Positions 5,032-44,228 of a DNA stretch of 60,528 nt are shown piece by piece. Numbering within the stretch: position 1 is the first letter of the stretch; each line of letters opens with the position of its first letter. The position numbers and the translations under genes were made by a program. This stretch comes from a bacterium. GTDB lineage: Bacteria; Sysuimicrobiota; Sysuimicrobiia; Sysuimicrobiales; Humicultoraceae. Under the pieces are notes generated by a model that saw only the letters and a list, made by a program, of their open reading frames with translations, was not told where the DNA came from and searched no databases. The DNA lies in the NCBI GenBank assembly GCA_041497675.1, contig JBGQGY010000007.1:1-60528 (forward strand), read 5' to 3'.

Positions 5032-6657
5032 GTGATCATGGTGCGCAAACAGGTGTTCATCGCCGCAGCCGTGCTGGGGGCGATCGTGCTGGTCGCCGCG
5101 ACCCTGAACGTCATGGCGCAGGATCAGGGTGTCTTCACCGACGGCGTCTTGATCTACGCGGACCGATCTGATCCCGAGGGGCTGGACCCCACGATGTTCA
5201 CCGGGACCTCAGGGTACATCCAGGGACATCTGATGTTTGACACCCTGTTGGGGAAGAACAACAACGGGAGGCTCGTGCCGCTCCTGGCTTCCTCCTGGCA
5301 GGTGAGCCCTGACGGGCGCACCTACACGTTCACGCTGCGCGGCGACGTCGAGTTCCACAGCGGCAAGAAGCTGACCTCGGCCGACGTCAAGTACTCGCTG
5401 GAGCGTCTGGGGAAAAAGGAGAACGCCTCACCCTGGAACGATCTGGTCGCGTTCGTCGACCGCGTCGAAGCGCCCGACGATTACACGGTGGTGGTCCGCC
5501 TCACCAAGCCCAACCGTTTGTTCCTCGATAGTATGTCCCAGACAGGCGCCTCGATCGTCAACCGGCAGGCGATCGAGAAGTACGGGAAGGAGTTCGGCCG
5601 GACGGTCGTGGATGGGACCGGGCCCTTCAAGCTCGTCGATCGCGCGTTCAATGAGCGGATCGTCTACGAGCGTTTCGATAAGTATCGGTGGGGACCGTCG
5701 TTCTACGGCAACCGCGGGCCGGCTCGTATCAAGCGGGTGGTGTGGCGGGTGATTCCCGAACTGGCAACACGCCAGCTCATCATGGAACGAGGCGAGATCG
5801 ACCTGATCACGCACAACGCCGCCCCGAACGTCCTCTATCGCGCCACAGAACTCAAAGGCCGGGTGGATGTCACGCTGCGGCCGGTGTTGGAGATCCGCGC
5901 CATCTTCACAAACGCGAACTTCCCGCGGATGAAGGATCGCGCGGTCCGGCGGGCCATCGCGCAGGCGATCAATAGCAAGGCCATTGCCGAGACCATCTAT
6001 GCGCCGGTCGGCGCGCAGGCCTTCAATATGCTCCATCCGTTGGCCTACGGATACTGGAAGGGCGCTGAGCAGGCGGCGCTGCGATACGATCCCGCCCGGG
6101 CCCGGCAAACGTTGGATGAGGCCGGCTGGAGGCTGAATGCGCAGGGCTTCCGTGAGAAGGGCGGCGTGGTACTCAGCGGCATCAAGTTGATGGGACTGCC
6201 GCAGTATCGGGAGGCGGCCGTCGTGGTGAAGGAGAGCCTGGGCGAGATTGGCATCGGCGCCGACATCGAGCTGTCCGAACGCGGGCGGCTCTACCCGCTG
6301 CGTCGCACCGGTGACGTCGAGCTGGAGTTCACCAACACGACGGGCGCGCCCGACGTGCTCATGGAGTATATGCATTCCACCAACTTCCCCGGGACGAATC
6401 GCTTTGGCTGGAAGGATGCCCGCACCGACCAGTTGATCGAGACCTTTCTCGCCGGGGCCGACGAGAAGAGGGCGCTGGAGGCCGGGTACGAGGTTCAAAA
6501 GATCGCCGTCGCGGAAGAGGCGCTCTTTATCCCCGTGTACCTCACCCAGGAGCTGAACATCGTCAACAGCCGGACCGTACGCGGGTTCGTCGGAACGACC
6601 TGGCTCAACTCGGGAGTGGGGAAACTGCTGGGCGTGTGGAGTACCCGGCGGCCCTGA
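5032..6657 (+). CDS. Peptide/nickel ABC transporter substrate-binding protein (family 5)
   Basis: Signal peptide, LDP motif, LA.SW.VS.DG.TYTF.LR..V.FH.G, GTGPFKL. Confidence 0.92.
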   Translation: MIMVRKQVFIAAAVLGAIVLVAATLNVMAQDQGVFTDGVLIYADRSDPEGLDPTMFTGTSGYIQGHLMFDTLLGKNNNGRLVPLLASSWQVSPDGRTYTFTLRGDVEFHSGKKLTSADVKYSLERLGKKENASPWNDLVAFVDRVEAPDDYTVVVRLTKPNRLFLDSMSQTGASIVNRQAIEKYGKEFGRTVVDGTGPFKLVDRAFNERIVYERFDKYRWGPSFYGNRGPARIKRVVWRVIPELATRQLIMERGEIDLITHNAAPNVLYRATELKGRVDVTLRPVLEIRAIFTNANFPRMKDRAVRRAIAQAINSKAIAETIYAPVGAQAFNMLHPLAYGYWKGAEQAALRYDPARARQTLDEAGWRLNAQGFREKGGVVLSGIKLMGLPQYREAAVVVKESLGEIGIGADIELSERGRLYPLRRTGDVELEFTNTTGAPDVLMEYMHSTNFPGTNRFGWKDARTDQLIETFLAGADEKRALEAGYEVQKIAVAEEALFIPVYLTQELNIVNSRTVRGFVGTTWLNSGVGKLLGVWSTRRP

Positions 6658-6676
6658 CGGTTCCCCTCAGGCGACG

Positions 6677-7617
<941 letters not shown>

Positions 7618-7621
<4 letters not shown>

Positions 7622-8475
7622 TGCTCGAGCGGCCGCGCGGGTATTGGGCCGACGTCTTCCAACGGTTCAGGCGCGAGCGTGTCGCGTGGCTGGCGGCCAC
7701 GGTGGTGGCAGCGTATGTCCTGGCCGCGGTCGCGGCGCCCAGGATCGCGCCCTACAATCCCCTCAAGACGGCCCTGCTGGAACGGCTCCGCCCGCCTTCG
7801 GCGGCCCACTGGTTGGGGCAGGATGAGGTGGGACGCGACATCCTGAGCCGGGTCATTTTCGGCGGCCGGGTGTCGCTCGCGGTCGGCGTCCTGTCTGTCG
7901 CGCTTGGCGTCAGCGTCGGCGGCTTGCTCGGGATCGTCGCCGGGTTCTACCCGAGGCTCGACGATTCGATCATGCGCGTGGTCGATGTCGTGATGGCCTT
8001 TCCATTCATCCTGCGCGCCATCGCCGTCGTCGCGATCCTGGGCCCGGGGTTTATCAATCTCTTTATTGCCATCGGGTTCGGACAGATCCCCACGTTCGCC
8101 CGGCTCGTTCGCAGCCTGGTCCTGAATGTGAAGGGTGAGACGTTCGTTGAAGCTGCGCGGGCGATCGGGGCCGGTGACCGCCGCGTGCTCTCACACCACG
8201 TGCTGCCGCAGATGGTCGCGCCCATCACCACGTTCTCGACCCTGGAGATGGGTGCGGCGATCCTGGGCGCGGCGACACTCAGCTTTCTGGGGCTGGGTGT
8301 CAACCCGCCGACGCCCGAGTGGGGAGCGCTGGCCAGCGCCGGGCGTGAGCACCTTCGCTACGCGCCCCACGTCGTGGTCTTTCCCTCACTCGCCATCTTC
8401 ATTGCCGTCTGGTCGTTCAACGTTCTCGGTGATGCGCTTCGTGATGCGATGGATCCCAAATTGCGTGGGAGGTAG
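7618..8475 (+). CDS. Peptide ABC transporter permease (DppC/OppC-like)
   Basis: HWLG.D..GRDILSR, FVEAARAIGA, LSFLGLG..PPTPEWG. Overlaps the upstream stop (GTGA). Confidence 0.93.
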
Positions 8476-8535
8476 GTGTTACTGATGTCCGCGGAGAACT
8501 GGACACGGACCCCAAACTTGAGGAGGGAAATCCCG

Positions 8536-10134
8536 ATGGCAACGTGGCGGTGGTTCGGTCGGGCCGCGGCGATGGTGCTCGCTGTGGTGCTGCTCGCACC
8601 CCTGGCGTTCGCTCAGGTGCAGCCCAGACCCGGCGGCGAGCTCGTCTTTGTCACGACGGAGGAGCCGGACACCCTCGACCCGCAGAAGACCAGCGCGGCC
8701 GTGACGGGTAACGTCATGCGCTGGATGGCCGATACGCTGGTCACCAAGGACCTCAGCGGCAACTACACTGGTGCGCTGGCGAAGTCGTGGACCGTTTCGC
8801 GCGACGGCCTCGTCTGGACCTTCCAGCTCAAGGAGAACGTGAAGTTTCACGACGGCTCCCCGTTCAACGCGCAGTCGGTGAAGGGGTCGATCGAGCGGGC
8901 GCTCGCCCCCGAGACCAAGTCGCCGGTTGCCGGTGCCCTGTTTGGCCCGGTGGCCAGCGTGACCGCCGAAGGCGCACTGACGGTCGTCATCAAACTCAAG
9001 GAATCCTTCTCGCCGTTCCTCGATAACCTGACGGACCCGCGCGCAGTCATCATCAGCGCGCAGGCCGCGCAGCAGCTCGGTGACCGATTTGGCCGGAGCC
9101 CTGTGGCGACCGGCCCGTTCAAGATTCAGGAATGGCGCAGCGCAGACCGTGTCATCCTGGTGCGCAACCCCGACTATCAGTGGGGTCCGAGTTACGCCCA
9201 CGCGGGGCCGCCGTATGTCGAGCGGCTGATCCTGCGGATCGTGCCGGAGTTGGCCGCCCAAGTGGCGGCGTTCGAGCGGGGCGAGATCACGGTCACGTTC
9301 CCCGCGGTCATCCCGCCGACGGACGTGCGCCGGCTACAGGACACGAAGAAGTACGCTATGTTCACCTTCCTGCGCAAGGGTATCGCCAACATGATGGAGT
9401 TCAACGTCACGAAAGAGCCGTTCACCGACGTGCGGGTGCGGCGTGCCTTAGCCTTCGCGATCGAGAAGAAGAGCATCCTGCATATTGCGCTGGAGGATCT
9501 GGGCGAGGTCGCCTATGGTCCGCTCCCGCCTTCGATCTGGGGGTATTGGGACGGTATCAAGGACTACGCGCCTGGGTACGATCCCGGCCAGGCCAAACGG
9601 CTGCTGGCCGAGGCTGGGTGGCAGCCGGGGGCGGGCGGGGTACTGCAAAAGGACGGCAAGCCGTTCACCTTCCAACTCTTCATCGTCCCAACCGACCTGG
9701 CGCGGAAGACGGCTCAGATCATCCAGGCACAGTTGCGGGCCTACGGCATCCAGATGGAGATCCAGCCCTTCGAGTTTGGGACCCTGCTGGCGAAGTTGCG
9801 CGCGGGCGAGCACCAGGCCGAAACCCTCGGCTACACGTACACATCACCCGACATCTTCTTCCTGTGGTTCCATTCGTCCAATGTGGGCACAGGGTTGACG
9901 TTCAGCCACAACAAGGATCCGCAGCTCGACAAGATGATCGTGGCGTCGCGGACTGAGACGAGCCCGCAAAAGCGGCTGGAAATCTATCGGGACCTGCAAA
10001 AGTACGTCGTAGACAAAGCGCTGTGGGTGCCGCTGTTTATCAATACCAACTACATTGCGATCCAGCCAAACGTGCAGGGCGCGAAGGTCCACCCCGACGG
10101 GTACCTCGTAGTGGCGGATATGTACCTCCGCTGA
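8536..10134 (+). CDS. Second peptide ABC transporter substrate-binding protein (family 5)
   Basis: SD GAGGAGG before ATG 8536, signal peptide ending AFA-Q, EPDTLDP, VKFHDG, ATGPFK. Confidence 0.92.
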   Translation: MATWRWFGRAAAMVLAVVLLAPLAFAQVQPRPGGELVFVTTEEPDTLDPQKTSAAVTGNVMRWMADTLVTKDLSGNYTGALAKSWTVSRDGLVWTFQLKENVKFHDGSPFNAQSVKGSIERALAPETKSPVAGALFGPVASVTAEGALTVVIKLKESFSPFLDNLTDPRAVIISAQAAQQLGDRFGRSPVATGPFKIQEWRSADRVILVRNPDYQWGPSYAHAGPPYVERLILRIVPELAAQVAAFERGEITVTFPAVIPPTDVRRLQDTKKYAMFTFLRKGIANMMEFNVTKEPFTDVRVRRALAFAIEKKSILHIALEDLGEVAYGPLPPSIWGYWDGIKDYAPGYDPGQAKRLLAEAGWQPGAGGVLQKDGKPFTFQLFIVPTDLARKTAQIIQAQLRAYGIQMEIQPFEFGTLLAKLRAGEHQAETLGYTYTSPDIFFLWFHSSNVGTGLTFSHNKDPQLDKMIVASRTETSPQKRLEIYRDLQKYVVDKALWVPLFINTNYIAIQPNVQGAKVHPDGYLVVADMYLR

Positions 10135-10152
10135 TCGCCGGGGGCGGGCAGG

Positions 10153-11073
10153 ATGCGGGCCTACCTGATCCGCAGGCTCTTCCTGCTCGTCCCCACGTTG
10201 TTTGGGGTGACGCTCGCCGTCTTCCTCATGCTCCGGCTGACGCCGGGCGATCCCGTTCAAATCATGCTGGGAGAGTTTGGCTCGAAGGAACAGGTCGAGC
10301 GGCTGCGCCATGATCTCGGACTCGACCAACCGCTGCCCATGCAGTACGTGAAGTTCATCGCGCGGGCGGCGCACGGCGATCTCGGCACATCGATCCGCAG
10401 CCGCACCGCGGTCGTCACCGAGATCGGGGATCGGTTGCCGGCGACCATTACGCTGACACTGGCCGCGACCGCGCTCGCAGCCGGCGTCGGTGTGTCGATT
10501 GGCACAGTCGCCGCAACGGCCCGGATGCCATTGGTCGACTCCGCCGTGATGGCGTTCTCCCTGATCGGTTTGTCCATGCCGACGTTCTGGTCCGGGCTGC
10601 TGCTCATCTTCGCCTTCTCGCTGAAACTCGGCTGGCTCCCGATCACCGAGTCGGAAGGGATTCGGGCGCTGATCCTGCCCGCCGTCACGCTTGCCGCGCC
10701 GGCCTCGGCCGTGCTGGCGCGCATCACGCGTTCGAGCGTGCTCGAGGTGCTGGGCCAGGAGTTCATCCGGACGGCGCGTTCGAAGGGGCTGGCGCACTAC
10801 GCCGTCGTGGTCCGGCACGCGTTGCGCAACGCCCTGATCCCCGTGCTGACCATCCTTGGGCTGCAGTTCGGGGCGCTGCTGGCGGGGGCGGTCATCGTCG
10901 AATCGGTTTTCTCCCGGCCCGGCCTCGGCCGCCTGGCCGTGAACGCCATCCTGTCGCGTGACTTTCCGATGGCGCAAGGGATCGTGTTGGTCGTCGGAGT
11001 GATGTACGTGTTTGTGAATGCGACGATCGATCTGGTATACGGCTTCCTGGACCCGAGGATCCGCTACCATTGA
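10153..11073 (+). CDS. Peptide ABC transporter permease (DppB/OppB-like)
   Basis: PGDP, GLDQP, EFIRTARSKGL, HALRNALIP, DPRIR. Confidence 0.93.
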   Translation: MRAYLIRRLFLLVPTLFGVTLAVFLMLRLTPGDPVQIMLGEFGSKEQVERLRHDLGLDQPLPMQYVKFIARAAHGDLGTSIRSRTAVVTEIGDRLPATITLTLAATALAAGVGVSIGTVAATARMPLVDSAVMAFSLIGLSMPTFWSGLLLIFAFSLKLGWLPITESEGIRALILPAVTLAAPASAVLARITRSSVLEVLGQEFIRTARSKGLAHYAVVVRHALRNALIPVLTILGLQFGALLAGAVIVESVFSRPGLGRLAVNAILSRDFPMAQGIVLVVGVMYVFVNATIDLVYGFLDPRIRYH

Positions 11074-11957
11074 GCGCGGTCGCCGCCGGCGCGGCCCCAA
11101 TGCGGGTCGTCAGACCGCCCGACAGGTGGCGTCTCTTGTTCACGCGCCTCCGCCGCAGGCCGGTCGTGGCCGCGGCGTTGGTCGGGCTCGTGGGGCTCAT
11201 CGTGCTTGCTGCCGCCGCCCCACTCGTGTCGCCGTACGATCCGTACGAGTTGATCCCGGGCGAGACGCTGCGCCCGCCCACGGCACGGTTTCTCTTCGGT
11301 ACCGACGACCTCGGCCGCGACATCTTCAGCCGGGTCATCTACGGCACACGCATCTCGCTGCAGATCGGCGTCGTGACGGTCTCGATCGCGCTGATCCTGG
11401 GGACCGGTGTGGGGCTGGCGGCCGGCTATTACGGCGGCCGCATCGACAGCGGGTTGATGGCTGTGATGGAAGTGATGCTCGCCTTTCCGCAGATCCTGCT
11501 GGCGATGGGCATTCTGGCCATGCTGGGGCCGAGCCTGACCAACGCGATGATCGCGGTCGGGCTGTCGGCCGTGCCTGTGTACGCGCGGACGGCGCGCAGC
11601 GTCACGTTGGGCGTCAAGGGGATGGATTACATCGAGGCCGCCCGTGCGCTCGGCGCCGTCGACCTCCGCATCGTGGCGCGACACGTCCTGCCCAACATGA
11701 TCCCGCCGATCATCGTGCTGGCGACGGCCGGCATGGGGATCTCGCTGCTGGTGGCGGCCGGCCTGAGCTACCTGGGGCTCGGCGCGCAGCCGCCGCTGCC
11801 TGAGTGGGGGTCCATGTTGAGCGCCGCCCGCGCCTACCTGCGAAATGCGTGGTGGATAGCGACGTTCCCTGGGATGGCGATCATGGTCGTGGTGCTCTGT
11901 CTCAACATCTGCGGCGACTGGCTGCGTGACCTGCTCGACCCGCGGCTGCGTATCTGA
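11070..11957 (+). CDS. Peptide ABC transporter permease (DppC/OppC-like)
   Basis: FGTDDLGRDIFSR, YIEAARALGA, LSYLGLGAQPP.PEWG. Confidence 0.93.
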   Translation: MSAVAAGAAPMRVVRPPDRWRLLFTRLRRRPVVAAALVGLVGLIVLAAAAPLVSPYDPYELIPGETLRPPTARFLFGTDDLGRDIFSRVIYGTRISLQIGVVTVSIALILGTGVGLAAGYYGGRIDSGLMAVMEVMLAFPQILLAMGILAMLGPSLTNAMIAVGLSAVPVYARTARSVTLGVKGMDYIEAARALGAVDLRIVARHVLPNMIPPIIVLATAGMGISLLVAAGLSYLGLGAQPPLPEWGSMLSAARAYLRNAWWIATFPGMAIMVVVLCLNICGDWLRDLLDPRLRI

Positions 11958-13594: not shown

Positions 13595-13771
13595 GCCCTA
13601 CCCCACCTCTTTCATTCGACTACCGTCCGCCACTGCCGCCTGACGGCCGTTCACCACGACCTGCGAGGTACGGTGATTTGCCAGAGGGAGGGAGAATCCT
13701 TCTTTCGGGGCGAACCAGTGCTCGCGAACCGGCCGCAACTGTTGGGGATCCATTAGCGTATGATATCGTTG

Positions 13772-15091: not shown

Positions 15092-16423
15092 GTGCGGCGA
15101 CTGACCGCGGCCCTGATCGCCGCGGGGCTGCTGATCGTGCCGCAGGCCTCCAGGGCCGCGTCTCGCCCCGGCGTCACCCGCCATGTGCTGGACAACGGCT
15201 TGACCGTCATCATCAAGGAAAACCCGCAGAGCGACTTGGTGGTCACGGAAGCCGTCGTCCGCGCGGGCCCGCGGGTGGAAGAGTCGCGCCAGGCGGGGAT
15301 CACCTTCTTCGTCCGGGCCATGCTGCTGCGGGGTACCGGTCGCCGGAGCGGCGCTGAGATTGCGGAGGCGATCGAATCGGTCGGCGGGCAGCTTGGGGGT
15401 GGGACCACCGCCGACTTCACGGCGCTCTATACGATCACCACGAGCCGGCACGTGGATGCGGGGATGAACCTCGTCGCCGATCTGCTGACCGATGCCCGGT
15501 TCGATCCGCAGGACGTGGAGACACAGCGCCGCGTGAGCCTGTCACGCATCGCGCAGAACACCGACCAGCCGTTGCAGCAGGCGATCGACTTGTTCAACGC
15601 GACGCTGTACCCGTATCACTCGTACGCGCAGTCGGTCTTCGGCACCGCCGAATCGGTAGGGTCGCTGACTCGTGACGACCTGGTCGCATTCTACCGCGGC
15701 TACTTTACGGCTCCAAATATTGTTCTCGTGGTCACTGGGAATATCGCGCCTGACGTCGCTCTGAATAAGGTGCGCCGGGCCTTTGGCGGCCTGCGGGCCG
15801 ATCCGCCGCCTCGCCGGACTGGATGGCTGCGGGCAGTTGAGCGGGCGCTGGCCCCCGCGCCGCAGGCCCCGCAAGAGATCAGACAGACGCGCGCGATCTC
15901 CGCGGCATGGATCGCGCTGGGCTACCTGACGGTGCCGGTGGGTCACCGGGATTTTCCGGCGCTGCGCGTCCTCAACGCGATTCTTGGTGAAGGCCAGTCG
16001 TCGCGTTTGTTTGTGGCAATCCGCGAGAAACGCGGATTGGCCTACCAGGTCGGATCGGCGCTGCCGCCCCGCGCCGGGCCGGGATACATCCGTCTCTCCG
16101 CGGGTACCGCGCCGCCGGCGCTGTCGGCCGTCGTCGCCGAGATGCTTGAGCAGGTCGAGCGGCTGCGTGCGGACGCGCCACCGGCCGACGAGGTCGAGAA
16201 GGCGCGGCGTGGGGTCATCGGCCGCTACGCCCTGGCCCACGAGGATCTCGAGGCCCATGCGTTCTATCTGGGGTGGTACGAGATGCTCGGCGTGGGATAC
16301 GAGTTCGATGCGCTGTTTCCCGAGCTCATTGCCCGAGTGACACCCGAGGACGTACTCCGCGTGTCGCGCCGGTACCTCACCAATCATGTCCTGGCTGTGG
16401 TGGCGCCGCCGACAGCACGGTGA
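15092..16423 (+). CDS. M16 peptidase non-catalytic partner subunit, with signal peptide
   Basis: M16 architecture (LDNGLTVI, SSRLF..IREKRGLAY) but HxxEH replaced by FFVRA. Abuts the upstream gene. Confidence 0.85.
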   Translation: MRRLTAALIAAGLLIVPQASRAASRPGVTRHVLDNGLTVIIKENPQSDLVVTEAVVRAGPRVEESRQAGITFFVRAMLLRGTGRRSGAEIAEAIESVGGQLGGGTTADFTALYTITTSRHVDAGMNLVADLLTDARFDPQDVETQRRVSLSRIAQNTDQPLQQAIDLFNATLYPYHSYAQSVFGTAESVGSLTRDDLVAFYRGYFTAPNIVLVVTGNIAPDVALNKVRRAFGGLRADPPPRRTGWLRAVERALAPAPQAPQEIRQTRAISAAWIALGYLTVPVGHRDFPALRVLNAILGEGQSSRLFVAIREKRGLAYQVGSALPPRAGPGYIRLSAGTAPPALSAVVAEMLEQVERLRADAPPADEVEKARRGVIGRYALAHEDLEAHAFYLGWYEMLGVGYEFDALFPELIARVTPEDVLRVSRRYLTNHVLAVVAPPTAR

Positions 16424-22544: not shown

Positions 22545-22628
22545 GTGAACCTTCGAGGGCACGAGGCGACGCTGCGTGAGGTGATGGCGTCATACGGCCT
22601 GCTTACACCGGCCCCGGCGTCACGATGA
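22545..22628 (+). CDS. 27-aa ORF (MNLRGHEATLREVMASYGLLTPAPASR), translationally coupled to the next gene; possible gene remnant
   Basis: SD AAGGGAG upstream of GTG 22545. Stop overlaps the next start (ATGA). Confidence 0.3.
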   Translation: MNLRGHEATLREVMASYGLLTPAPASR

Positions 22629-23380
22629 GGCGGGTGCGGTTCATCGCCGACGGGCGCGTGCACAGCGGTCGACACGACGGTGACGTGCTCATCGACGAGC
22701 AGGGCCGCGCGCACGGTGTCGGGGCCGTCACCTGGTTGCCGCCGGTTGCGCCGAGCAAGATCATCGGGTTCGCGCTGACGTACCGTGATCACGCGGCCGA
22801 ACTGGCCGTCGACATACCCTCGGATCCCGCGATTTTCTTGAAACCACCGAGCAGTCTGGTAGGCCATCTTGCACCGGTGGTGTATCCGCGCGGGGCGGAA
22901 TACCTGCACTACGAGGCAGAGCTCGCCGTGGTGATCGGCCGGCGGTGCCGGCGCGTGCGGCCCGAACACGCGCCCGACGTCGTCCGCGGCTACACGGTGG
23001 CGAACGACGTCACCGTGCGCGACTTCGTCAAGAACTTCTTTCGACCACCCGTGAAGGCGAAAGGGTGGGACACGTTCTGCCCGATCGGCCCCGCGGTGGT
23101 CGAAGGCGAGATCACCGATCCGCACCGGCTGGCGCTGCGCGCCTCAGTGAACGGCGTGGTCCGCCAGCAGGGGACGACGGCCGATCTGAGTCCCACCATC
23201 TGGGAGCAGATCGCCTTTGTCAGCGAGTTCATGACCCTCGAGCCCGACGACGTGATCCTGACGGGGACGCCGAAGGGGATCTCCCACGTGCGCCCCGGCG
23301 ATCGCATGCGGGTCGAGGTGGAGGGCGTGGGGGCGCTGGAGAACCCCGTCGTCGCCGACCTTATAGGGGGTCCCGGTTGA
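22625..23380 (+). CDS. Fumarylacetoacetate hydrolase family protein (HpaG-like decarboxylase/isomerase)
   Basis: HYEAELAVVIG, GYTVANDVT.RD, KGWDTFCPIGP, TLEP.DVILTGTP. Located in hpa context. Confidence 0.88.
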   Translation: MRRVRFIADGRVHSGRHDGDVLIDEQGRAHGVGAVTWLPPVAPSKIIGFALTYRDHAAELAVDIPSDPAIFLKPPSSLVGHLAPVVYPRGAEYLHYEAELAVVIGRRCRRVRPEHAPDVVRGYTVANDVTVRDFVKNFFRPPVKAKGWDTFCPIGPAVVEGEITDPHRLALRASVNGVVRQQGTTADLSPTIWEQIAFVSEFMTLEPDDVILTGTPKGISHVRPGDRMRVEVEGVGALENPVVADLIGGPG

Positions 23381-24846
23381 TGGGCGCCCGAACCGGCAGC
23401 CAGTACGTCGAGGGCGTGCGGGCCAGGCCGCGCGATCTGTGGATCGCCGGCGAGCAGGTCACCGATCCCGTCACGCATCCCGCTTTCCGAAACGTCATCC
23501 GCAGCGTCGCCGCGCTCTACGACATGCAGCACGATCCCGCCCGGCGCGATGAGATGACCTGCATTTCGCCATCAAGCGGCGAACGTGTGGGCATGTCGTT
23601 TCTGACGCCGCGCAGCCACGATGATCTGGTACGCGTGCGACGCATGATGAAACGGTGGGCCGACTATTCCGGTGGCATGATGGGCCGCTCGCCTGACTAC
23701 CTGAACCGCGCGTTGATGGCCTGCGCCGCGGCCGCCGACTACATGACCGCCAACGATCCGCGGTTCGGTGAGAACATCAGGCGGTATTACGAGCACGTGC
23801 GCGAGCACGATCTCTGCTTGACGCACACGTTGATCAACCCGCAATCCAACCGATCGGTCGGGCCGTCGGCGCAGGCCGACCCGTATCTCGCAGCGGGCAT
23901 CGTCCGCGAGACGTCTGATGGGATCGTGATCCGCGGGGCGCGGATGCTGGCCACGCTGCCGGTCAGCGATGAGATCATGGCGTTTCCTTCAACGGTGCTC
24001 CGCGGCGGCCCCGAGGACGCCCCATATGCGTTTGCGGTCGCCATCCCGTGCTCGACGGCCGGGCTCCGCTTCATCTGCCGGGAGCCCTTCGATGACGGCC
24101 GCGGGCCGGTCGATCATCCGCTGGCCGCGCGGTTCGAGGAGATGGACGCCGTTGTTATCTTCGACGACGTGCTGGTGCCCTGGGACCGGGTCTTCCTGCT
24201 GCGCGACGTCGAACGGTGCAGCCGCGTCTTTGCCGAGACGCGCGCCGTCGTGCACATGGCGCATCAGGTGGTCACCAAGAACGTCGCGAAGACCGAGTTT
24301 GTGTTGGGCGTCGTCAGCCTGATAGTCGAGACAATCGCCATCGAGGAATTCCAGCACGTCCAGGAGAAAGTGGCCGAAGTCATCCAGTACCTCGAGATGA
24401 TGCGCGCGTTCCTGCGCACCGCGGAGGCCGATGCGTCCATTGACCGGTGGGGGATGATGACACCGGCCTGGCCGCCCCTGGATGCCGCCCGCAACGTGTT
24501 CACGCGCGCGTACCCTCGGATGATGGAGATCGTCCATCAATTGGGAGCCAGCGGTCTGATGGCCATTCCCCTGCAGGCGGACATCGAAGGCCCGCAGGGG
24601 CCGACGATCCAGAAGTACTATCAGGCGGCGCGTGCGGGCGCCCGCGATCGCATCAGGCTCTTCCGGCTGGCATGGGACATGGCGCTGTCGGCGTTCGGCG
24701 GTCGTCAGGCGCTGTATGAACGCTTCTTCTTTGGCGACCCGGTGCGCATGGCCGGCGCGATGTTTGCGAGTTACGATCGGACGCCGTACATGGACCGCGT
24801 GCGGGCGTTTCTCGCCCGCGCCGACCACGAAAGCGACGGCGACTGA
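23380..24846 (+). CDS. hpaB: 4-hydroxyphenylacetate 3-monooxygenase, oxygenase component
   Basis: MGARTG.QY, MMGRSPDY, HTLINPQ.NR, RFEEMDA, RQ.LYERFFFGDP. TGATG coupling with the upstream gene. Confidence 0.92.
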   Translation: MGARTGSQYVEGVRARPRDLWIAGEQVTDPVTHPAFRNVIRSVAALYDMQHDPARRDEMTCISPSSGERVGMSFLTPRSHDDLVRVRRMMKRWADYSGGMMGRSPDYLNRALMACAAAADYMTANDPRFGENIRRYYEHVREHDLCLTHTLINPQSNRSVGPSAQADPYLAAGIVRETSDGIVIRGARMLATLPVSDEIMAFPSTVLRGGPEDAPYAFAVAIPCSTAGLRFICREPFDDGRGPVDHPLAARFEEMDAVVIFDDVLVPWDRVFLLRDVERCSRVFAETRAVVHMAHQVVTKNVAKTEFVLGVVSLIVETIAIEEFQHVQEKVAEVIQYLEMMRAFLRTAEADASIDRWGMMTPAWPPLDAARNVFTRAYPRMMEIVHQLGASGLMAIPLQADIEGPQGPTIQKYYQAARAGARDRIRLFRLAWDMALSAFGGRQALYERFFFGDPVRMAGAMFASYDRTPYMDRVRAFLARADHESDGD

Positions 24847-25445
24847 TGCCGAACGGACCCGATCCCAAGACCTTTCGACACACCATGGGCCTCTTCGCCA
24901 CCGGGGTGACGGTCGTATCGATCCGTGAGGGCGGCGAGGTCCTTGGGATGACCGCCAACTCGGTCACGTCAGTGTCGCTGGAGCCGCTGTTGGTGCTGGT
25001 GAGCGTCGATTTGCGGGCCAGGATCGCGCCGCACATGACGATGGGCCGGTTCTTCGCGATCAACTTCCTGCGGGACGACCAGGAAGTGCTGTCACGCTAC
25101 TATGCCGGCGGGTGGCGCGATCATCCACAACCTGAGCACCGCTTCGAGCCCTGGAACGGGACCCCGCGGCTGGTCGGCGCGCTCGCCGCGGTACGGTGTC
25201 AGGTGTATCGAGTCGATGAGGGCGGCGACCACCACATCGTCGTCGGTCGGGTGCTCGAGCTAGGGGAGGGCCCGGCTCCGTGGAACCCGCTGTTGTTCTT
25301 CGCCGGTCGGTACAGACGCCTGGCCCCACTGGACGCGGTCGCCGCACCCCCCGAGCGGTTAGGGCCGGACGGCATCTCGATCTACTATGAAGAGTGGGGC
25401 AGTGCCGATCGGCGTCCTGCTCAAGCCTCCGACCCGCCCGCATAG
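24846..25445 (+). CDS. hpaC: Flavin reductase (HpaC-like reductase component)
   Basis: FR..MG.FATGVTVV, GMTANS.TSVSL.P, GGDH.I..G.V, PLLFF.GRY. Directly follows hpaB. Confidence 0.85.
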   Translation: MPNGPDPKTFRHTMGLFATGVTVVSIREGGEVLGMTANSVTSVSLEPLLVLVSVDLRARIAPHMTMGRFFAINFLRDDQEVLSRYYAGGWRDHPQPEHRFEPWNGTPRLVGALAAVRCQVYRVDEGGDHHIVVGRVLELGEGPAPWNPLLFFAGRYRRLAPLDAVAAPPERLGPDGISIYYEEWGSADRRPAQASDPPA

Positions 25446-25490
25446 TCTCACCTAGGTCCTCGGCGCCCGTACAGACGTCCCCGCAAGGCC

Positions 25491-25520
25491 GAACCCCGCC
25501 GGTCTGGCACGGCGGGGTTC
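25491..25520. terminator. GC-rich hairpin, probable terminator between hpaC and the convergent small ORF
   Basis: Perfect 11-bp stem GAACCCCGCCG / CGGCGGGGTTC with 8-nt loop. No strong U-tract. Confidence 0.6.
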
Positions 25521-25525
25521 TCAAG

Positions 25526-25633
25526 CTACGAAGGGTCGGGGATGGGACCGGAACGACGTCCTCCGGCACCGTCGGCCCGGAGGGGACACCCCCGACCCGA
25601 ACTTTGGCTATTTGCCCTTCGCTTCTGGTCCAT
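25526..25633 (-). CDS. Putative 35-aa small protein (MDQKRRANSQSSGRGCPLRADGAGGRRSGPIPDPS), divergent from the pro-peptide gene
   Basis: Strong SD GAGGAG 9 nt before ATG. TAG followed within 5 nt by the 25491-25520 hairpin. Confidence 0.4.
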   Translation of the reverse strand: MDQKRRANSQSSGRGCPLRADGAGGRRSGPIPDPS

Positions 25634-25662
25634 TTGCGGGGTCTCCTCTGCCCGATAGCCTA

Positions 25663-25761
25663 GAATATCCGGGTTCTGGGATATTCACTGTATGAGGGTC
25701 CGGGGGCTTCACTGTAGATGAAGTTTTTGGGATCTGCGGCAGGAACTTCATCTCCTGCCGC
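25663..25761. promoter_or_regulatory. Divergent control region with inverted and direct repeats (candidate operators)
   Basis: GAATATCC-N8-GGATATTC (25663-25686); TTCACTGTA twice (25684, 25708); AGATGAAGTT-N18-AACTTCATCT (25716-25753); GCGGCAGGA-N8-TCCTGCCGC (25736-25761). Locally AT-richer. Confidence 0.55.
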
Positions 25762-25849
25762 CGAAACCGATAGACATCCCAGATTGCAGTCTCCCTGGTG
25801 CCCGCGAGAGACCTGTCAGACGACGAACGGACACTGAGGGGGGACTGAG

Positions 25850-25996
25850 ATGAAGAAGTTGTTTGCCGTTGTGCTATTGGGTTTGATGCTTGGGGTCGTG
25901 GCTGCCTGGGGTCAGATCGATCCGACCCGCACCGCCGGTGACGGGAACATCGAGGTCATCGCAGGCGACGGGAACATCGAAGTGATCGGCGGCTAG
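25850..25996 (+). CDS. 48-aa secreted signalling pro-peptide MKKLFAVVLLGLMLGVVAAWG-QIDPTRT-AGDGNIEVI-AGDGNIEVI-GG
   Basis: SD GAGGGGG, classical Sec signal peptide (MKK + hydrophobic core + A-W-G), tandem 9-aa repeat with only synonymous differences. Lies 51 nt upstream of an XRE-TPR gene. Confidence 0.88.
   Translation: MKKLFAVVLLGLMLGVVAAWGQIDPTRTAGDGNIEVIAGDGNIEVIGG
25934..25987 (+). repeat. 2 x 27-bp tandem repeat encoding AGDGNIEVI
   Basis: GCCGGTGACGGGAACATCGAGGTCATC / GCAGGCGACGGGAACATCGAAGTGATC: 4 mismatches, all third-position synonymous. Confidence 0.95.
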
Positions 25997-26047
25997 CCCG
26001 CCGCGCACCGCAGCACTAGGCAAGGCCCTACGCCGGGAGGGAACGCC

Positions 26048-27337
26048 GTGACGCTTGGTGAGAAGATTCGCCAGGCCAGGAAGCAGCGCGGGATCACGCA
26101 GCGGGCGCTCGCCGGCGGTGACCTCTCGGAGAGTTTCATCAGTATGCTCGAACACGACAAGGTCAGGCCGTCACTCGACACCATGCGGGTGCTGGCGGGG
26201 CGCCTCTGTGTGCCCCTGAGTGAACTGCTCGACGCCGCTCCACCCCCGCAGAAGCAGGTGATCGTCAAACTCAAGCTCGCAAGTACGCTGCTCCACCAGC
26301 ACCGTTTCACCGACGCGCTCGAGGCGTTCCAAGATGCGGAGCGCGCCGCGCCTGATGCCACGATGGAGACGGCCTTTCGGATCCACACGGGCATGGGGCA
26401 GGCCTTGACCGGGCTCCAACAGTACGACCTGGCGCTTGACCGCCTGGAGCGCGGGCGAGCGCTGGCAGATACACTCGGGCGGCCGGATTTGGTTGCGCGT
26501 GTGGCGAGTGCCACCGGGTTTCTCCGCCTCCGGCAGCGCGACTTTCCGGCCGCCCGGGAAGAGTTTCATCACGGCCTGACCGCGATCAGGTCGGTAGCGC
26601 CCGTCGACACCGAGTTCGAGGGCGGACTGCTGACCAACCTGGGCCGGACCTATACAGACCTTGGTCTGCCGGTCCAGGCCCTAGAGTGTTTCCGGGCCGC
26701 TCTCGAGCGACTCGAGGGCGTCGGCGACCTCACCGCGCTCGGCGCGCTGCATTTTAACCTTGGCGTGACCTACGAGCGTCAGCGCGCGTTCGACCTCGCC
26801 CGGCGGCATTTGGAAAAAGCGGCGGCGCTCTTCGAGGCCCAAGAGAACCTCAAACTGCTCGGGACGGTCAAGCGCAGCTTGGGGATCTTGCTGATCGACC
26901 GCGGCCACGCCGCCGAAGCTGCGGAGGTGTTGAAGCAAAGCTTGGAAGTCGCCACCCGCACGGCGGACGACATCGGTCGCGCGCAGACCCTCACCGAACT
27001 GGCCCGCGCCGCGTTGGCCCTCGGCGACCTCGCGACCGCCCGGGCCGGCGCTGATGAAGCGATTCGTTTGGCCGTGAGAGTGCAAGACCCGCTCGAAGCG
27101 GCGCGCGCCGAATCGGTCATGGCGGCCGTCTGCCACCGCGAAGGCCGGTTCGACGAGGCCACCCACCGGTATGCCTATGCCCTGGAGCAATACGAGACGC
27201 TGAATGCCGCCGCTGATGTCGCCCGCGTGAGCCGCGACTACGCCTTCTTACTCATGGAACGAGGAGAGGAGGTCCGAGCCGCCCGCCATTTCGCCCGCGC
27301 GTTCCGCGCGCAGGAAGCCGCAGGCGTCGCTCGATGA
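26048..27337 (+). CDS. XRE-HTH + TPR transcriptional regulator (RRNPP/NprR-PlcR-like peptide receptor)
   Basis: LGEKIRQARKQRGITQRALAG.DLSESFISMLE.DKVRPS HTH, followed by about 8 TPR-like helical pairs including LLTNLGRTY and LHFNLGVTY. SD GGGAGG. Confidence 0.85.
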   Translation: MTLGEKIRQARKQRGITQRALAGGDLSESFISMLEHDKVRPSLDTMRVLAGRLCVPLSELLDAAPPPQKQVIVKLKLASTLLHQHRFTDALEAFQDAERAAPDATMETAFRIHTGMGQALTGLQQYDLALDRLERGRALADTLGRPDLVARVASATGFLRLRQRDFPAAREEFHHGLTAIRSVAPVDTEFEGGLLTNLGRTYTDLGLPVQALECFRAALERLEGVGDLTALGALHFNLGVTYERQRAFDLARRHLEKAAALFEAQENLKLLGTVKRSLGILLIDRGHAAEAAEVLKQSLEVATRTADDIGRAQTLTELARAALALGDLATARAGADEAIRLAVRVQDPLEAARAESVMAAVCHREGRFDEATHRYAYALEQYETLNAAADVARVSRDYAFLLMERGEEVRAARHFARAFRAQEAAGVAR

Positions 27338-27588
27338 CGCCGATGCCGACGTCGCGCTCAGGGGAACTGCGCGGCGAGACACGCGTGCCGCGTCATACGC
27401 TGAGACCGCTCAGTCCGTTGGAGCGAGAGATCATTCTCCTGGCCGAGCAGGGAATGTCGGTGCGGGAGATCGCCTACCATCTGTCGATCGATACTTGTCT
27501 GGTCAGAGACCGTCTTCGTACGATCCTCGGACCGCCGGCAAACCACCGGCGGAGCGCGCGACCGGGTCGAGAGAGCCTAGCTGTCTAG
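27334..27588 (+). CDS. Small solo LuxR/sigma-region-4-like HTH protein
   Basis: LSPLEREIILLAEQGMSVREIAYHLSI...VRDRL..I. ATGA overlap with the receptor stop codon. Confidence 0.65.
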   Translation: MTPMPTSRSGELRGETRVPRHTLRPLSPLEREIILLAEQGMSVREIAYHLSIDTCLVRDRLRTILGPPANHRRSARPGRESLAV

Positions 27589-28809
27589 GTCCGCCAACCC
27601 GCCGTTGCCGTCGCGGGCCGATTTTTCGGCGGTCGCGGCGACCGCTAGATAGCGCGCGGCCGCGTCGTGCTCGGCGCGCATCTGATGGTACAGTCCCAAC
27701 GCCTTTGCCGCCTCCGCAAGCTCTGCGTGTGCCCCGAGTCCGGCCATCTGAGCCACGGCGTCCGCCAGCATCGCCACCGCCTCGCCCTGCCGGCCCTGCG
27801 CCAGAAGTGCGCGGCCGCGCAGCGCCGCGATCCGGGGCGCTGCGGCGGTGGCAGGGGCGTCTGCCATTGACGACGCTTCATCGGCGGCGCGCAGCGCAAG
27901 CACGGTATTGCCTGCGGCCAGCGCGGCGCCGCCGAGAACCAACAGGGCCAGCAGACGCTTCTTGGCGTTGCCGTGCTGGGCAAACAGACGCGCCGCGGCC
28001 TGCAGATGAACGACGGCATCGACATGCGCTCCGTCGAGACCGAGGACCATGCCCAGTCTGAAACGCGCGTCGGCGTGGAGCGTCTCCATCTGCTGCCGCT
28101 CGGCAAGCGTCGCCGCGGACTGCAACCGGCGCCGCGCCTGCCTGAGGTCGCCGGCCTGCACCGCGGTGGCGGCGATCCCAAAGAGCGCACGCGCGGTGAG
28201 GTCTGGGTGCCGCGAGCTCTTTCGCGAAAGACCCAGCGCCCGCTGGAACGCCGCGGTGGCGGCCCGCGTGTCGTCACGGCGCAGCATCAGCAGTCCGGCC
28301 GTGAGTTCCTTGCGGATGCGCATCCGCTGGCCCACCGAGGACGCGAGCGCGCCGGCTTCTTCGATCAATGGGTCGGCTCGGTGGAGCGCGCCCGTGCGGA
28401 TCTCGATTTCAGCCAGGAGTAATGCCGCCTCCGCGCGATGTTCGTCCCATCCCGCGGCCGACGCCATCTCGGAGGCCACGCCGAGGACGCGGCGCGCCAG
28501 CGTCTCATCGCCTTCACGCGCCGCGTCGCGCGCCCAACGCAGCAGGCCTTCCATGCCTGCGAGATGCTGATCGGCGTTGTCGCCGGCGACCGTCGACAAC
28601 GACATCCGCAGTCGACGGCTGAGAAACCGCAGGGTATCGAGCGAGGGATCGGCAAAACCGCCTTCGAGCTGACTGATGAAACTTTTCGTGTAGTCCGGCG
28701 CAGCGAGATCGGCCTGCGTCAACTCAAGCTCGCGCCGTCGTTGGCGAATACGAGGACCAATTGGCGCATCTTCAGGAGATACGTGGCGTCGGGAAGGGTG
28801 TCGGCCCAC
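27577..28809 (-). CDS. Second XRE-HTH + TPR regulator, convergent
   Basis: IGPRIRQRRRELELTQADLA..DYTKSFISQLE.G.ADPSLDTLRFLSRRL, followed by Ala-rich TPR-like helices. GTG at 28809 after GAGAGG preferred, 28851 possible. Confidence 0.82.
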   Translation of the reverse strand: MGRHPSRRHVSPEDAPIGPRIRQRRRELELTQADLAAPDYTKSFISQLEGGFADPSLDTLRFLSRRLRMSLSTVAGDNADQHLAGMEGLLRWARDAAREGDETLARRVLGVASEMASAAGWDEHRAEAALLLAEIEIRTGALHRADPLIEEAGALASSVGQRMRIRKELTAGLLMLRRDDTRAATAAFQRALGLSRKSSRHPDLTARALFGIAATAVQAGDLRQARRRLQSAATLAERQQMETLHADARFRLGMVLGLDGAHVDAVVHLQAAARLFAQHGNAKKRLLALLVLGGAALAAGNTVLALRAADEASSMADAPATAAAPRIAALRGRALLAQGRQGEAVAMLADAVAQMAGLGAHAELAEAAKALGLYHQMRAEHDAAARYLAVAATAEKSARDGNGGLADLDS

Positions 28810-28918
28810 GTGCACCCTCTCAGGCGAGTCTTGCGACACATTAGAACACATCGGGTGCGGACAGGGAACAGGCGTCTAAAATGTTAGCTATGCTCTACTC
28901 TCAGAGACGGGGCTCAAC

Positions 28919-28947
28919 TTGACACTCAACGGGGTCTCTGCTATACG
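28919..28947 (+). promoter_or_regulatory. Sigma70-type promoter for hom
   Basis: TTGACA (28919-28924), 17-nt spacer, TATACG (28942-28947) with extended TGn. Confidence 0.6.
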
Positions 28948-28982
28948 GGGTGCAACGCAATCGGAGGGATTCAGTAGCAGCG

Positions 28983-30275
28983 ATGCGGTCGCGCGCGGGT
29001 GAATGCCGGATTGGGTTGTTGGGATTGGGGACCGTTGGGTCGGCGGTCGCCGGGCTGCTTCTGCGCTCTCAGGACGAGATCGCGCGGCGGGCCGGGCTGC
29101 CCATCCGGCTGCGGAGCGTCGCCGTGGCCCATACCGACCGGGCGAGGACCGTCACGCTGCCCGATGGCATCCTGACCGGTGACGCCGGATCAGTCGTGAC
29201 CGATCCCGCCGTGGATGTCGTCGTCGAGGTGATGGGTGGCATCGAGCCCGCGCGCACGCACATCCTCCGCGCGCTGGCCGCGGGCAAGTCTGTGGTCACG
29301 GCCAACAAGCAACTGATGTCCACGCGTGGCGAGGAACTGTTGGCCGCCTCAGCGGAGCGCGGGGTCGATCTCTTCTTCGAAGCCAGTGCGTGCGGCGGCA
29401 TCCCCATCATCAAGACGATCCGCGAGTCGCTGGCCGCCAATGATATTACGCAGATCATGGGAATCGTGAACGGCACGACGAACTTTATCCTGACGCGGAT
29501 GGCGCAGGATGGGGTCGGGTTTGGCGAGGCGCTCGCAGAAGCGCAGCGGCTGGGTTACGCGGAGGCCGACCCGACCGACGACGTTGATGGGCATGACGCG
29601 GCGGCGAAACTCGCGATCCTGGCGTCGGCCGCGTTTGACAGCCGCGTAGTGAGTGCCGACGTCTACCGCGAAGGCGTAGCCAACATCACACCCCGGGTCA
29701 TCACGTATGCGCGTGAGATGGGGTATGTGGTGAAATTGCTTGCGATCGCCCGAAGCGTCGAAGGGGCGATCGAAGCGCGCGTCCATCCCGCCTTGCTGCC
29801 CCAGACGCACCCGCTCGCCGGGGTTGGCCACGAATTGAACGCGGTGCTCATCGAGGCCGAGCCCGCGGGGCCGATCGTGCTGCAGGGTCGTGGGGCCGGC
29901 GGGGGGCCGACGGCCAGCGCCGTGGTCGGAGACCTGATCGACGTCGCCCGCAACTTGAGGGCCGGGGCGTGCAACCGGATCAGGAGTAGCGGCGGGCATC
30001 GGCGTCCCGTGAAGGAGATGGCCGACGTGGTGTTGGCCTACTGCGTCTCGCTGGTGGTCGCCGATCGGCCGGGCGTCTTTGCGCAGGTCGCGGGAGCGTT
30101 CGGTGAAGAGCGGGTGAGTATCGCTTCGATCGTGCAGAAGAGCCGGGGGGTGACGGCGGATGTCGTGCTGGTCACCCACGAAGCGCCGGAGGCGGCGATG
30201 CGCCGGACGCTGGCGCGCCTTCACCGGCTCAATGTGGTGGCAGACGTCCACGCCGTGTTGCGTATCGCGGCGTGA
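28983..30275 (+). CDS. hom: Homoserine dehydrogenase with C-terminal ACT domain
   Basis: GLLGLGTVG, VVTANK, FEAS.CGGIP, NGTTNFIL, GYAEADP..DVDG.DAAAK, DRPGVF. Confidence 0.93.
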   Translation: MRSRAGECRIGLLGLGTVGSAVAGLLLRSQDEIARRAGLPIRLRSVAVAHTDRARTVTLPDGILTGDAGSVVTDPAVDVVVEVMGGIEPARTHILRALAAGKSVVTANKQLMSTRGEELLAASAERGVDLFFEASACGGIPIIKTIRESLAANDITQIMGIVNGTTNFILTRMAQDGVGFGEALAEAQRLGYAEADPTDDVDGHDAAAKLAILASAAFDSRVVSADVYREGVANITPRVITYAREMGYVVKLLAIARSVEGAIEARVHPALLPQTHPLAGVGHELNAVLIEAEPAGPIVLQGRGAGGGPTASAVVGDLIDVARNLRAGACNRIRSSGGHRRPVKEMADVVLAYCVSLVVADRPGVFAQVAGAFGEERVSIASIVQKSRGVTADVVLVTHEAPEAAMRRTLARLHRLNVVADVHAVLRIAA

Positions 30276-40770: not shown

Positions 40771-40885
40771 CGTGCTCATCATAAATCGCAACTCTCGGAA
40801 TGAGAACGCAGGAGAGGGTCCGCGTGCCGCTGAACTGAAGTCAGAGCACGTCGCTGCGCACAGAGCACAGGGAGGAAGGGGTGGC

Positions 40886-41710: not shown

Positions 41711-41723
41711 CGCGACGAGGCCG

Positions 41724-44194: not shown

Positions 44195-44228
44195 GCACGT
44201 CGGTCGACGCACGCCAACCGCGGAGGCG

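Follow-up and report, generated by a model that had tools for sequence, protein, structure and literature searches.

A candidate RRNPP-like peptide signalling cassette with a tandem octapeptide precursor in an uncultured lineage of the Sysuimicrobiota

Two adjacent genes in a 60,528-nucleotide stretch of bacterial DNA (GenBank assembly GCA_041497675.1, contig JBGQGY010000007.1; the whole stretch analysed is hereafter called the window) form a candidate peptide signalling cassette. The first, P0001, encodes a peptide of 48 residues with a signal-peptide-like N-terminus and two identical copies of the octapeptide GDGNIEVI. The second, P0002, lies on the same strand, starts 52 nt 3' of P0001, and encodes a protein with a helix-turn-helix (HTH) domain and tetratricopeptide repeats (TPR). 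The sequence GGGAGGGAA stands 4 nt upstream of the GTG start codon of P0002, the DNA between the genes contains no predicted terminator-like site, and a conserved stretch of DNA precedes the pair. An earlier reading of the sequence alone (the original prediction) had described the peptide gene as an exported pro-peptide releasing two peptides of the GDGNI(EVI) type; the neighbour with HTH and TPR was absent from it. Coordinates are collected in Table 1.

The open reading frame (ORF) of P0001 translates as MKKLFAVVLLGLMLGVVAAWGQIDPTRTAGDGNIEVIAGDGNIEVIGG, letter-identical to the string first proposed. Its two in-frame 27-nt units (25934-25960 and 25961-25987) differ at 4 of 27 positions (GCC/GCA, GGT/GGC, GAG/GAA, GTC/GTG), all of them third codon positions and all synonymous, as had been described. 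Synonymous changes account for 19 of the 81 single substitutions possible in a unit, and in a simulation with 4 random substitutions per unit all four were synonymous in 0.16% of 200,000 trials. A search of 5.8 billion protein clusters recovered nine further clusters (10 matches including the query, among 19 candidates) of 48-55 aa and 58-96% identity to P0001, recorded under the name 'hypothetical protein' only. When the 10 clusters are aligned, residues 38-48 (the second repeat and the terminal GG) are invariant but for one I46L change, and A29-I37 are invariant or nearly so; the signal-peptide part varies, and the pro-region is variable among close relatives except for R27 and A29. In one relative, P0011, the first core unit is degenerate (AGGARTGVI) and the second unit and the GG are intact, making it a natural one-copy variant of the window pherotype. 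Because the repeats are near-invariant and P0011 keeps only the second unit, these alignments indicate that selection falls on the peptide sequence, and most strictly on its C-terminal copy. The original prediction had deduced such selection from the synonymous differences, and both lines of comparison now agree with it: judged from them, P0001 is a real gene under purifying selection on its repeat.

P0001 itself has no Pfam match, and its best ESM Atlas score (0.76) is uninformative. The RTX family of calcium-binding repeats, in which many tandem nonapeptides of the consensus GGxGxDxUx form a beta-roll, was considered for P0001 because the unit including its A has nine residues and is rich in G, D and N; it was rejected, as P0001 has only two units, the period in its relatives is 8, 9, 12, 13 or 14 residues, and Pfam gives no match.

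P0002 matches the Pfam models HTH_3 (an XRE-type HTH) at residues 7-60 (E 4.5e-8) and TPR_12 (E 3.4e-27), as well as TPR_1, TPR_2 and TPR_8. Its AlphaFold model, built with a 34-sequence alignment (pLDDT 93.2, pTM 0.78), has five short helices within residues 3-61 followed by 18 helices at 67-427 that make up nine TPR-like pairs, and no membrane segment or signal peptide was found in the sequence. As modelled, P0002 is a cytoplasmic regulator with an XRE-type HTH and a superhelix of nine TPRs. It has 71 homologous clusters, and those with names come from metagenome-assembled genomes (MAGs) labelled Armatimonadota or Armatimonadetes bacterium.

The pairing of the two genes extends across orthologous loci. 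Of the 72 receptor clusters (the query counted), 34 of full length were aligned, and one genome per GTDB species was scanned, which gave 62 loci. Clear orthologues of P0002, with 43-84% identity over about the whole length, are present in 33 of them (L001-L033); L034-L062, in which only pieces match (24-54%) and by generic TPR or HTH similarity, were left out. In two of the orthologous loci (L012 and L016) the DNA starts within the receptor gene, which leaves 31 loci with upstream DNA. In all 31 a small co-directional ORF ends 15-149 nt before the receptor gene, and in 30 it is complete and preceded by a GGAGG-like site, L003 being cut by the contig end. Every one of the 31 peptides has K or R at least once among its first 7 residues, together with 15 or more uncharged hydrophobic residues in a row, the export signal having been judged by simple hydropathy and a -3/-1 heuristic and not by SignalP or another dedicated predictor. 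P0001 has two K/R in its first 7 residues, an uncharged run at residues 4-21 and a maximum 15-residue hydropathy of 2.89; a -3/-1 reading by eye (VAA↓W, AWG↓Q, the arrow marking the cut) would put signal-peptide cleavage near A19-W20-G21.

Behind the hydrophobic run of the locus peptides follows a nearly invariant A-G-x-G, which opens a core of about eight residues. The original prediction had proposed comparing repeat number and sequence across strains; over the 31 loci the core is of the G-x-G type and occurs in 1-5 copies. The window and L001 have two copies of GDG[NS]IE[VI]I; L005, L008, L013 and L015 have 2-4 copies of GHGDGELL with NGG(G)WA spacers; L002 has five of GHGDGPVL and L003 at least five of GHGDGGVS; L004 and L010 have a single DHGGGEAFG; L017-L025 have 1-2 copies of GHGGGELL with a variable tail; and L026-L033, except L030, have one copy of G[RSPH][GP]D.D[SF][FY]G, also with a tail. 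The receptor pairing at 31 of 31 loci, the architecture of the export signal and the tandem copies together support, at the level of sequence, the exported pro-peptide with two GDGNI(EVI)-type copies that was first proposed.

The way in which the cores might be released is indicated by the residues in front of them. A small-x-small (-3/-1) pattern stands directly before the first core G in 25 of the 31 peptides (for example VFA↓GHGGGELL, ALA↓GHGGGELL and AFA↓GRGDMDSFG), where signal peptidase alone would expose the core, and this pattern supports a cut after A and before G. The window peptide, with RTA↓G, is among the 6 of 31 that do not fit the rule. The cuts after A that were originally envisaged are thus favoured by the small residue before the core G in relatives; the RTA junction falls outside the -3/-1 rule and would need a second protease, as had been assumed from the start.

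The hydrophobic N-terminus could alternatively be an uncleaved membrane anchor, or the product could be a periplasmic peptide, acting in the envelope on, for example, a membrane protease or transporter. The cleavage sites named for the window peptide (VAA↓W, AWG↓Q) do rest on a reading by eye, and the solute-binding proteins encoded elsewhere in the window, which have no lipobox, hint at a periplasm. Such an anchor is nevertheless rather improbable, given that the canonical small-x-small site falls exactly at the border between hydrophobic run and core in 25 of 31 peptides, that AFA↓Q and VMA↓Q contexts occur in the organism's own solute-binding proteins as well, and that tandem repetition of a short unit, one to five times, is what precursors processed into units typically show and anchored proteins do not.

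A profile of the 31 locus peptides reaches further. It matches 58 clusters at E <= 0.01, all of them named 'hypothetical protein', and 56 representatives among 1.84 billion at E <= 0.001, of which 52 are 40-104 aa long. The long matches P0144, P0154, P0167 and P0170 are unrelated repeat proteins. P0144 (291 aa) has six repeats of AQAGNGDLEVFGIG, which seem to belong to another, larger fold; the motif G-[ND]-G-D-[LI]-E-V that it has in common with the peptides is probably coincidental. P0111 has three copies without any spacer (FA↓GHGGGELL-GHGGGELL-GHGGGELL), and the repeat unit is therefore an octapeptide, while P0148 (AGHGDIEVI-AGHGDIEVL) and P0156 (AGDGFIEVI-AGDGFIEII) bridge the window type to the GHGD types. 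Spurious ORFs are common in G+C-rich DNA, and one of just 48 codons could owe its repeat to a recent local duplication and be no gene at all. That P0001 is such a chance ORF is next to impossible in view of its conservation in nine further clusters and in the profile family at both thresholds, its presence with a ribosome-binding site throughout the 31 loci, and the four synonymous differences out of four between its repeats.

A maximum-likelihood tree was built for 31 receptors, those of the window and 30 loci (L013, being truncated, and L012 and L016, having no peptide side, were left out). It has three clades, each with 100/99 support. In clade C (10 rows) the core is GHGGGELL in nine rows, L030 deviating; clade D (7 rows) has the G[RSPH][GP]D.D[SF][FY]G core; and clade B (14 rows including the window, whose receptor is sister to that of L001 with 100/100 support) is diversified in both core and copy number, its cores being mostly multi-copy. 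Peptide core and receptor clade change together, which amounts to a joint history rather than strict co-evolution, because kin share labels. The layout of the precursor follows the clades too: with 0-3 residues between the end of the cores and the stop, the peptides of the window and its clade fit a layout of the Phr/AimP type, and in clades C and D the core comes directly after the signal peptide with a variable tail behind it.

The conserved DNA upstream of P0001 reads, in order, CTTCA (25707-25711)-N7-TGAAGTT (25719-25725)-N18-GGAACTTCA (25742-25750)-N9-GCCGAA (25760-25765), the last element being GTCGAA in most relatives, and contains two overlapping inverted repeats that have the central TGAAG in common. 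The window and 11 loci have the pair TGAAGTT-N18/19-AACTTCA without any mismatch; 3 loci differ from it at one of the 14 positions and 4 at two. With up to 3 mismatches allowed, nine of the ten clade C loci gave no match and L022 a weak one with 3 mismatches; L003 and L028, whose upstream DNA is just 83 and 151 nt long, gave none either. The site occurs once in the 60.5-kb window versus 0 in 100 shuffles, and once per locus (the DNA compared reaching about 4 kb to each side of the receptor gene, or to the contig end if nearer), always 119-220 nt 5' of the peptide start and upstream of the peptide gene only. In an alignment of 19 upstream sequences the four blocks are invariant or nearly so and the spacers vary freely. 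RNAalifold on the 19 regions gave no stable consensus (-0.07 kcal/mol), and no Rfam match was found in 25400-26100 at E <= 1; an RNA hairpin formed by the long arms was rejected in favour of a DNA site, 0 of 10 pairs having a compensatory change. Because the half-sites are conserved in sequence without covariation, we argue for protein-binding DNA: 25707-25765 is a putative operator and promoter region, through which the system would be autoregulated. A scan with the sigma-70 consensus found no promoter in 25400-29000, and the one terminator-like site in this range lies inside the receptor gene. An ECF-type (extracytoplasmic function) or sigma-54 promoter was considered for GGAACTT...GTCGAA and rejected, its spacing, compared by eye with the two consensus sequences, fitting neither. 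Five clade C loci (L017, L019, L023, L024 and L025) have a cold-shock protein gene (MATGTVKWFNAEKGYGF...) as the next gene upstream of the cassette, about 200-600 nt before the peptide gene, replacing the HpaB and flavin reductase genes found in the window's clade; these five are without TGAAGTT...AACTTCA, and several keep GTTAACC-N3-GTCGAAT about 40 nt before the peptide start.

A short ORF directly upstream of a regulator gene, probably co-transcribed with it and with no terminator-like site between them, might also be a cis-acting leader that tunes the receptor gene 52 nt downstream and whose product has no function. A leader needs neither selection on the amino acids of a repeat nor a full signal-peptide architecture at 31 of 31 loci, the pairing persists over copy numbers of 1 to 5, and no conserved RNA structure was found upstream of P0001 (the region tested excludes the spacer between ORF and receptor gene). 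We regard the leader account as very unlikely.

Taken together, these observations make it fairly probable that P0001 and P0002 constitute an RRNPP-like signalling cassette of a secreted peptide and a cytoplasmic receptor, with about two GDGNIEVI octapeptides per precursor. The proposed cycle would begin with transcription of the peptide and HTH-TPR genes together, from the region with conserved inverted repeats, a step for which part of the evidence is given above. The N-terminal signal peptide would then direct the precursor into Sec export, with cleavage near A19-G21; another protease would cut ahead of G30 and G39 and trim the C-terminal GG, yielding about two octapeptides. At sufficient concentration the peptide would be re-imported, probably through an ABC importer of the Opp/Dpp type, and would bind in the groove of the P0002 superhelix. 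Binding would alter how the XRE-type HTH acts at the palindromes that precede the peptide gene, giving autoregulation, and at further targets.

Several findings weigh against this reading. All 17 Pfam matches of P0002 are to generic TPR or HTH models and none is RRNPP-specific, nor does any NCBIfam model reach its cut-off. In a profile search of the PDB, designed TPRs, LGN/Pins, AfsR and kinesin light chain outrank Rap (Pins 4e-16, AfsR 3e-14, Rap 2e-7 to 4e-6), and PlcR is matched solely via its HTH (residues 3-89, E 1.5e-8), a part of P0002 that DdrO-type XRE HTH domains match as well. Foldseek with the P0002 model gives its highest TM-scores to peptide-bound Rap (4gyo_A, RapJ-PhrC, TMq 0.68 and TMt 0.80; phi3T Rap with pheromone 0.62-0.63), yet places LGN first by E-value (1.4e-10). 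Because LGN/Pins outrank Rap by that E-value, the modelled fold would be that of a peptide-binding TPR superhelix and not specifically of the RRNPP kind. A complex prediction for the TPR domain (65-429) with peptide residues 19-48 scored 0.02 against a mark of 0.32 and is evidence neither way. Of the junctions RTA↓G and EVIA↓G in the window peptide, at least the first calls for cleavage by some enzyme besides signal peptidase. In most RRNPP systems the pro-peptide gene lies downstream of the receptor gene or divergent from it, whereas here it lies upstream. The absence of a lipobox from the solute-binding proteins hints weakly at a periplasm and an outer membrane, which would make release to the outside an extra step.

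Finally, the A-G-x-G start of the core is kept throughout the lineage, and GHGGGELL is unchanged in nine of ten clade C loci despite the divergence of their receptors. The core is to that extent less 'private' than typical pherotypes, and its conservation would also fit a chemical role: the regulator would then control the peptide gene without having the peptide as its ligand, and the octapeptide units, rich in Gly, His, Asp and Glu, would act as an extracellular or periplasmic effector, for instance by binding metal. The A-G-x-G-D/G start of the core in all three clades, the frequency of His, Asp and Glu in most cores and the generic superhelix of the receptor are compatible with such a role. 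A common metal site is not evident, though, since GDGNIEVI and most clade D cores (GRGDMDSFG, GSGDFDSFG) contain no His, and no genes for maturation, modification or dedicated export are conserved nearby. Adjacency to a TPR regulator of the ligand-sensing type at 31 of 31 loci and co-variation by clade are, moreover, what a ligand and its receptor predict, and we consider a non-ligand effector unlikely.

The 33 orthologous loci lie in MAGs titled Armatimonadota or Armatimonadetes, 'bacterium', or Candidatus Fervidifonticultor, Geohabitans or Nitrosymbiomonas. PMC11604079 assigns Fervidifonticultor and Geohabitans to the candidate phylum CSP1-3/Sysuimicrobiota, and the tree labels agree, the NCBI label being Armatimonadota. 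The range of RRNPP(A) systems, which is the Bacillota with their plasmids and phages, thus takes in none of the 33 loci. Within the window's clade the gene order is kept, with HpaB and flavin reductase genes upstream and a convergent paralogous HTH-TPR gene and a homoserine dehydrogenase gene downstream; because of this synteny the cassette is, as far as sequence comparison can tell, chromosomal and vertically inherited and not on a mobile element. The wider proposition is evenly balanced in our judgement: that uncultured CSP1-3/Sysuimicrobiota possess a vertically inherited, lineage-wide form of peptide quorum sensing, with an exported precursor of 1-5 octapeptides in tandem, an XRE receptor with nine TPRs encoded next to it and a dedicated palindromic operator. 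The RRNPP principle would then either have arisen here independently or have a very ancient relative here, and the system would possibly operate across a two-membrane envelope.

The prevailing view is that gene-encoded peptide signals with cytoplasmic TPR receptors belong specifically to the Bacillota and their mobile elements. We found no paper that joins RRNPP with Armatimonadetes, nothing relevant on RRNPP outside Bacillota/Firmicutes, and no published description of this cassette. The RRNPP_detector study, by its own account, analysed complete Firmicutes genomes only (PMC10075063), and the word 'quorum' does not occur in the main text, supplements aside, of two phylum-level papers on CSP1-3 (PMC11604079; PMC11962464). 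If the cassette works as proposed, its presence throughout an uncultured and environmentally widespread phylum would mean that this signalling principle is more widely distributed than known so far, and would provide a hypothesis of cell-cell communication, testable with synthetic peptides, in organisms known just from metagenomes and enrichments. The loci would then also offer a natural series of copy numbers (1-5) and core variants in which to follow the evolution of peptide-receptor specificity, and the diversification of core and copy number in the window's clade would be pherotype evolution outside the Bacillota. Addition of the cognate peptide to enrichments is a possible handle for cultivation.

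Table 1. Coordinates of the cassette and of neighbouring features in the window
Feature	Position	Strand	Basis or remark
Opp/Dpp-type sets, two consecutive, each a family-5 solute-binding protein and two permeases	5032..11957	+	Pfam SBP_bac_5, BPD_transp_1, OppC_N
Conserved upstream region, candidate operator/promoter	25707..25765	+	inverted-repeat search and locus comparison
Shine-Dalgarno-like GAGGGGGG	25836-25843	+	6 nt 5' of the P0001 ATG
Peptide gene P0001	25850..25996	+	ORF listing; ATG start, 48 codons and stop
Signal-peptide-like part, residues 1-21	25850..25912	+	MKK, then an 18-residue uncharged hydrophobic run
Pro-region QIDPTRTA, residues 22-29	25913..25936	+	translation; final A precedes the first core
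Core unit 1, GDGNIEVI, residues 30-37	25937..25960	+	translation, unit comparison
Spacer A38, ahead of core unit 2	25961-25963	+	translation
Core unit 2, GDGNIEVI, residues 39-46	25964..25987	+	translation, unit comparison
GG and stop, behind core unit 2	25988-25996	+	translation
Candidate receptor gene P0002, 429 aa, GTG start	26048..27337	+	Pfam, AlphaFold model, orthologues L001-L033
84-aa ORF, ATG overlapping the receptor stop (ATGA)	27334..27588	+	weak LuxR/sigma-70 region 4-type HTH
Convergent paralogue P0083, HTH and TPR, 424 aa as called	27577..28851	-	Pfam TPR_12 E 2.4e-8, HTH_3 E 8e-5

Among the neighbouring genes, the 84-aa ORF that follows the receptor gene may, with some uncertainty, be a third gene of the operon. 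Its Pfam matches (E 4e-4 to 1e-3) and its NCBIfam match to sigma70-ECF (E 1e-3) are all below cut-off; by tblastn it is clear in L001 only (66% over 59 aa) and weak in L020 and L023, and its 3' end overlaps that of P0083. The true start of P0083 is probably further in than called, with the HTH beginning near residue 33. L001, L002, L004-L010 and L014-L016 each have a copy of this paralogue (46-72% identity) downstream on the opposite strand. No second peptide-type ORF was found for it in the window, and its product may be a further receptor for the same peptide or else act together with P0002. The Opp/Dpp-type sets, possible importers of the mature peptide, lie 14 kb from the cassette, are not specific to it and have no adjoining gene for an ABC ATPase; their two solute-binding proteins have N-termini of the signal peptidase I type (VMA↓Q, AFA↓Q) and no lipobox Cys. 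A pair of M16 (insulinase-type) peptidases, 443 aa each, is encoded a few kb from the transporters (13760-16423, +); peptidases of this family cut small peptides. A reading of P0001 as the precursor of a ribosomally synthesized and post-translationally modified peptide was rejected, no genes for modifying enzymes being conserved nearby. The ORF of the HpaB-type monooxygenase (22945-24846, +; 633 aa from a GTG) overlaps an FAA-hydrolase gene (22625-23380, +); Pfam HpaB_N begins only at residue 150, and the real start is probably near 23389. Further along the window, an apparent fusion of haem A synthase (COX15/CtaA) and haem O synthase (UbiA/CtaB) of 775 aa (36043-38370, +) and a CopC-CopD fusion of 826 aa (38407-40887, -) adjoin a cytochrome c oxidase operon (40598-44855).

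Set beside known systems, the cassette has three features of RRNPP(A) members as judged from its sequence: an intracellular sensor of the TPR type, an N-terminal HTH, and a small adjacent gene for a putatively exported pro-peptide. Members of RRNPP(A) other than Rap carry an N-terminal HTH. The likeness to Phr and AimP would be one of working principle, and we assign P0002 to none of the named families Rap, Rgg, NprR, PlcR, PrgX and AimR. In pro-peptides of the Phr/AimP type a pro-region follows the signal peptide, and the short mature peptide, released by cuts after small residues, lies at or near the C-terminus. The precursors of clades C and D, with the core next to the signal peptide, reverse the Phr layout; this core position and the order of the genes, peptide first, set the cassette apart from Phr, PapR, NprX and AimP.

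By profile score or Foldseek E-value, the top matches of P0002 are the TPR_12 superhelices of the LGN/Pins and kinesin light chain type and the C-terminal TPR of AfsR. Superhelices of these types bind extended peptides in their inner groove. LGN, Pins and kinesin light chain are eukaryotic scaffolds and AfsR is an actinobacterial regulator of the SARP family, and none of them has an XRE-type HTH or an adjacent gene for an exported peptide. The TPR domain of P0002 superposes best on Rap of the Rap-Phr systems, including those of the phages phi3T and phi105; the sequence match is weak. Rap has no HTH and acts on response regulators, and phr genes lie downstream. The window family differs further in having up to five copies and an octapeptide unit. 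Two papers (PMC11343458; PMC9765709) document tandem pheromone copies in a single pro-peptide for RRNPPA systems, and describe the Rap-Phr pro-peptides of the phi3T/phi105 type as carrying several pheromone copies that are matured by extracellular proteolysis.

The arbitrium system AimR-AimP of Bacillus phages is phage-borne, unlike the window cassette, which is chromosomal and syntenic across genomes; AimR is not among the sequence or fold matches listed for P0002. Arbitrium combines a small exported pro-peptide and short mature peptide with an intracellular, TPR-like, DNA-binding receptor and Opp-dependent uptake, with AimP encoded downstream of AimR. PlcR-PapR likewise joins an activator with HTH and TPR to an exported pro-peptide of 48 aa, and the autoregulated genes have a palindromic operator in front of them; PapR lies downstream of PlcR and contains one C-terminal heptapeptide. 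PlcR is shorter than P0002 (293 residues in the PDB chain) and matches it through the HTH alone, and CTTCA-N7-TGAAGTT-N18-AACTTCA is not known to be related to the PlcR box. NprR-NprX of the Bacillus cereus group, whose receptor pairs an XRE-type HTH with about nine TPRs in roughly 420 aa, is similar to P0002 in size and build (NprR is not among the sequence or fold matches listed for P0002), and is alike also in its exported pro-peptide of about 40-50 aa, which adjoins the receptor gene and is probably co-transcribed with it. The candidate cassette departs from NprR-NprX in that its peptide gene comes first, its core is a tandem octapeptide starting with G, and its host belongs to CSP1-3/Sysuimicrobiota and not to the Bacillota.

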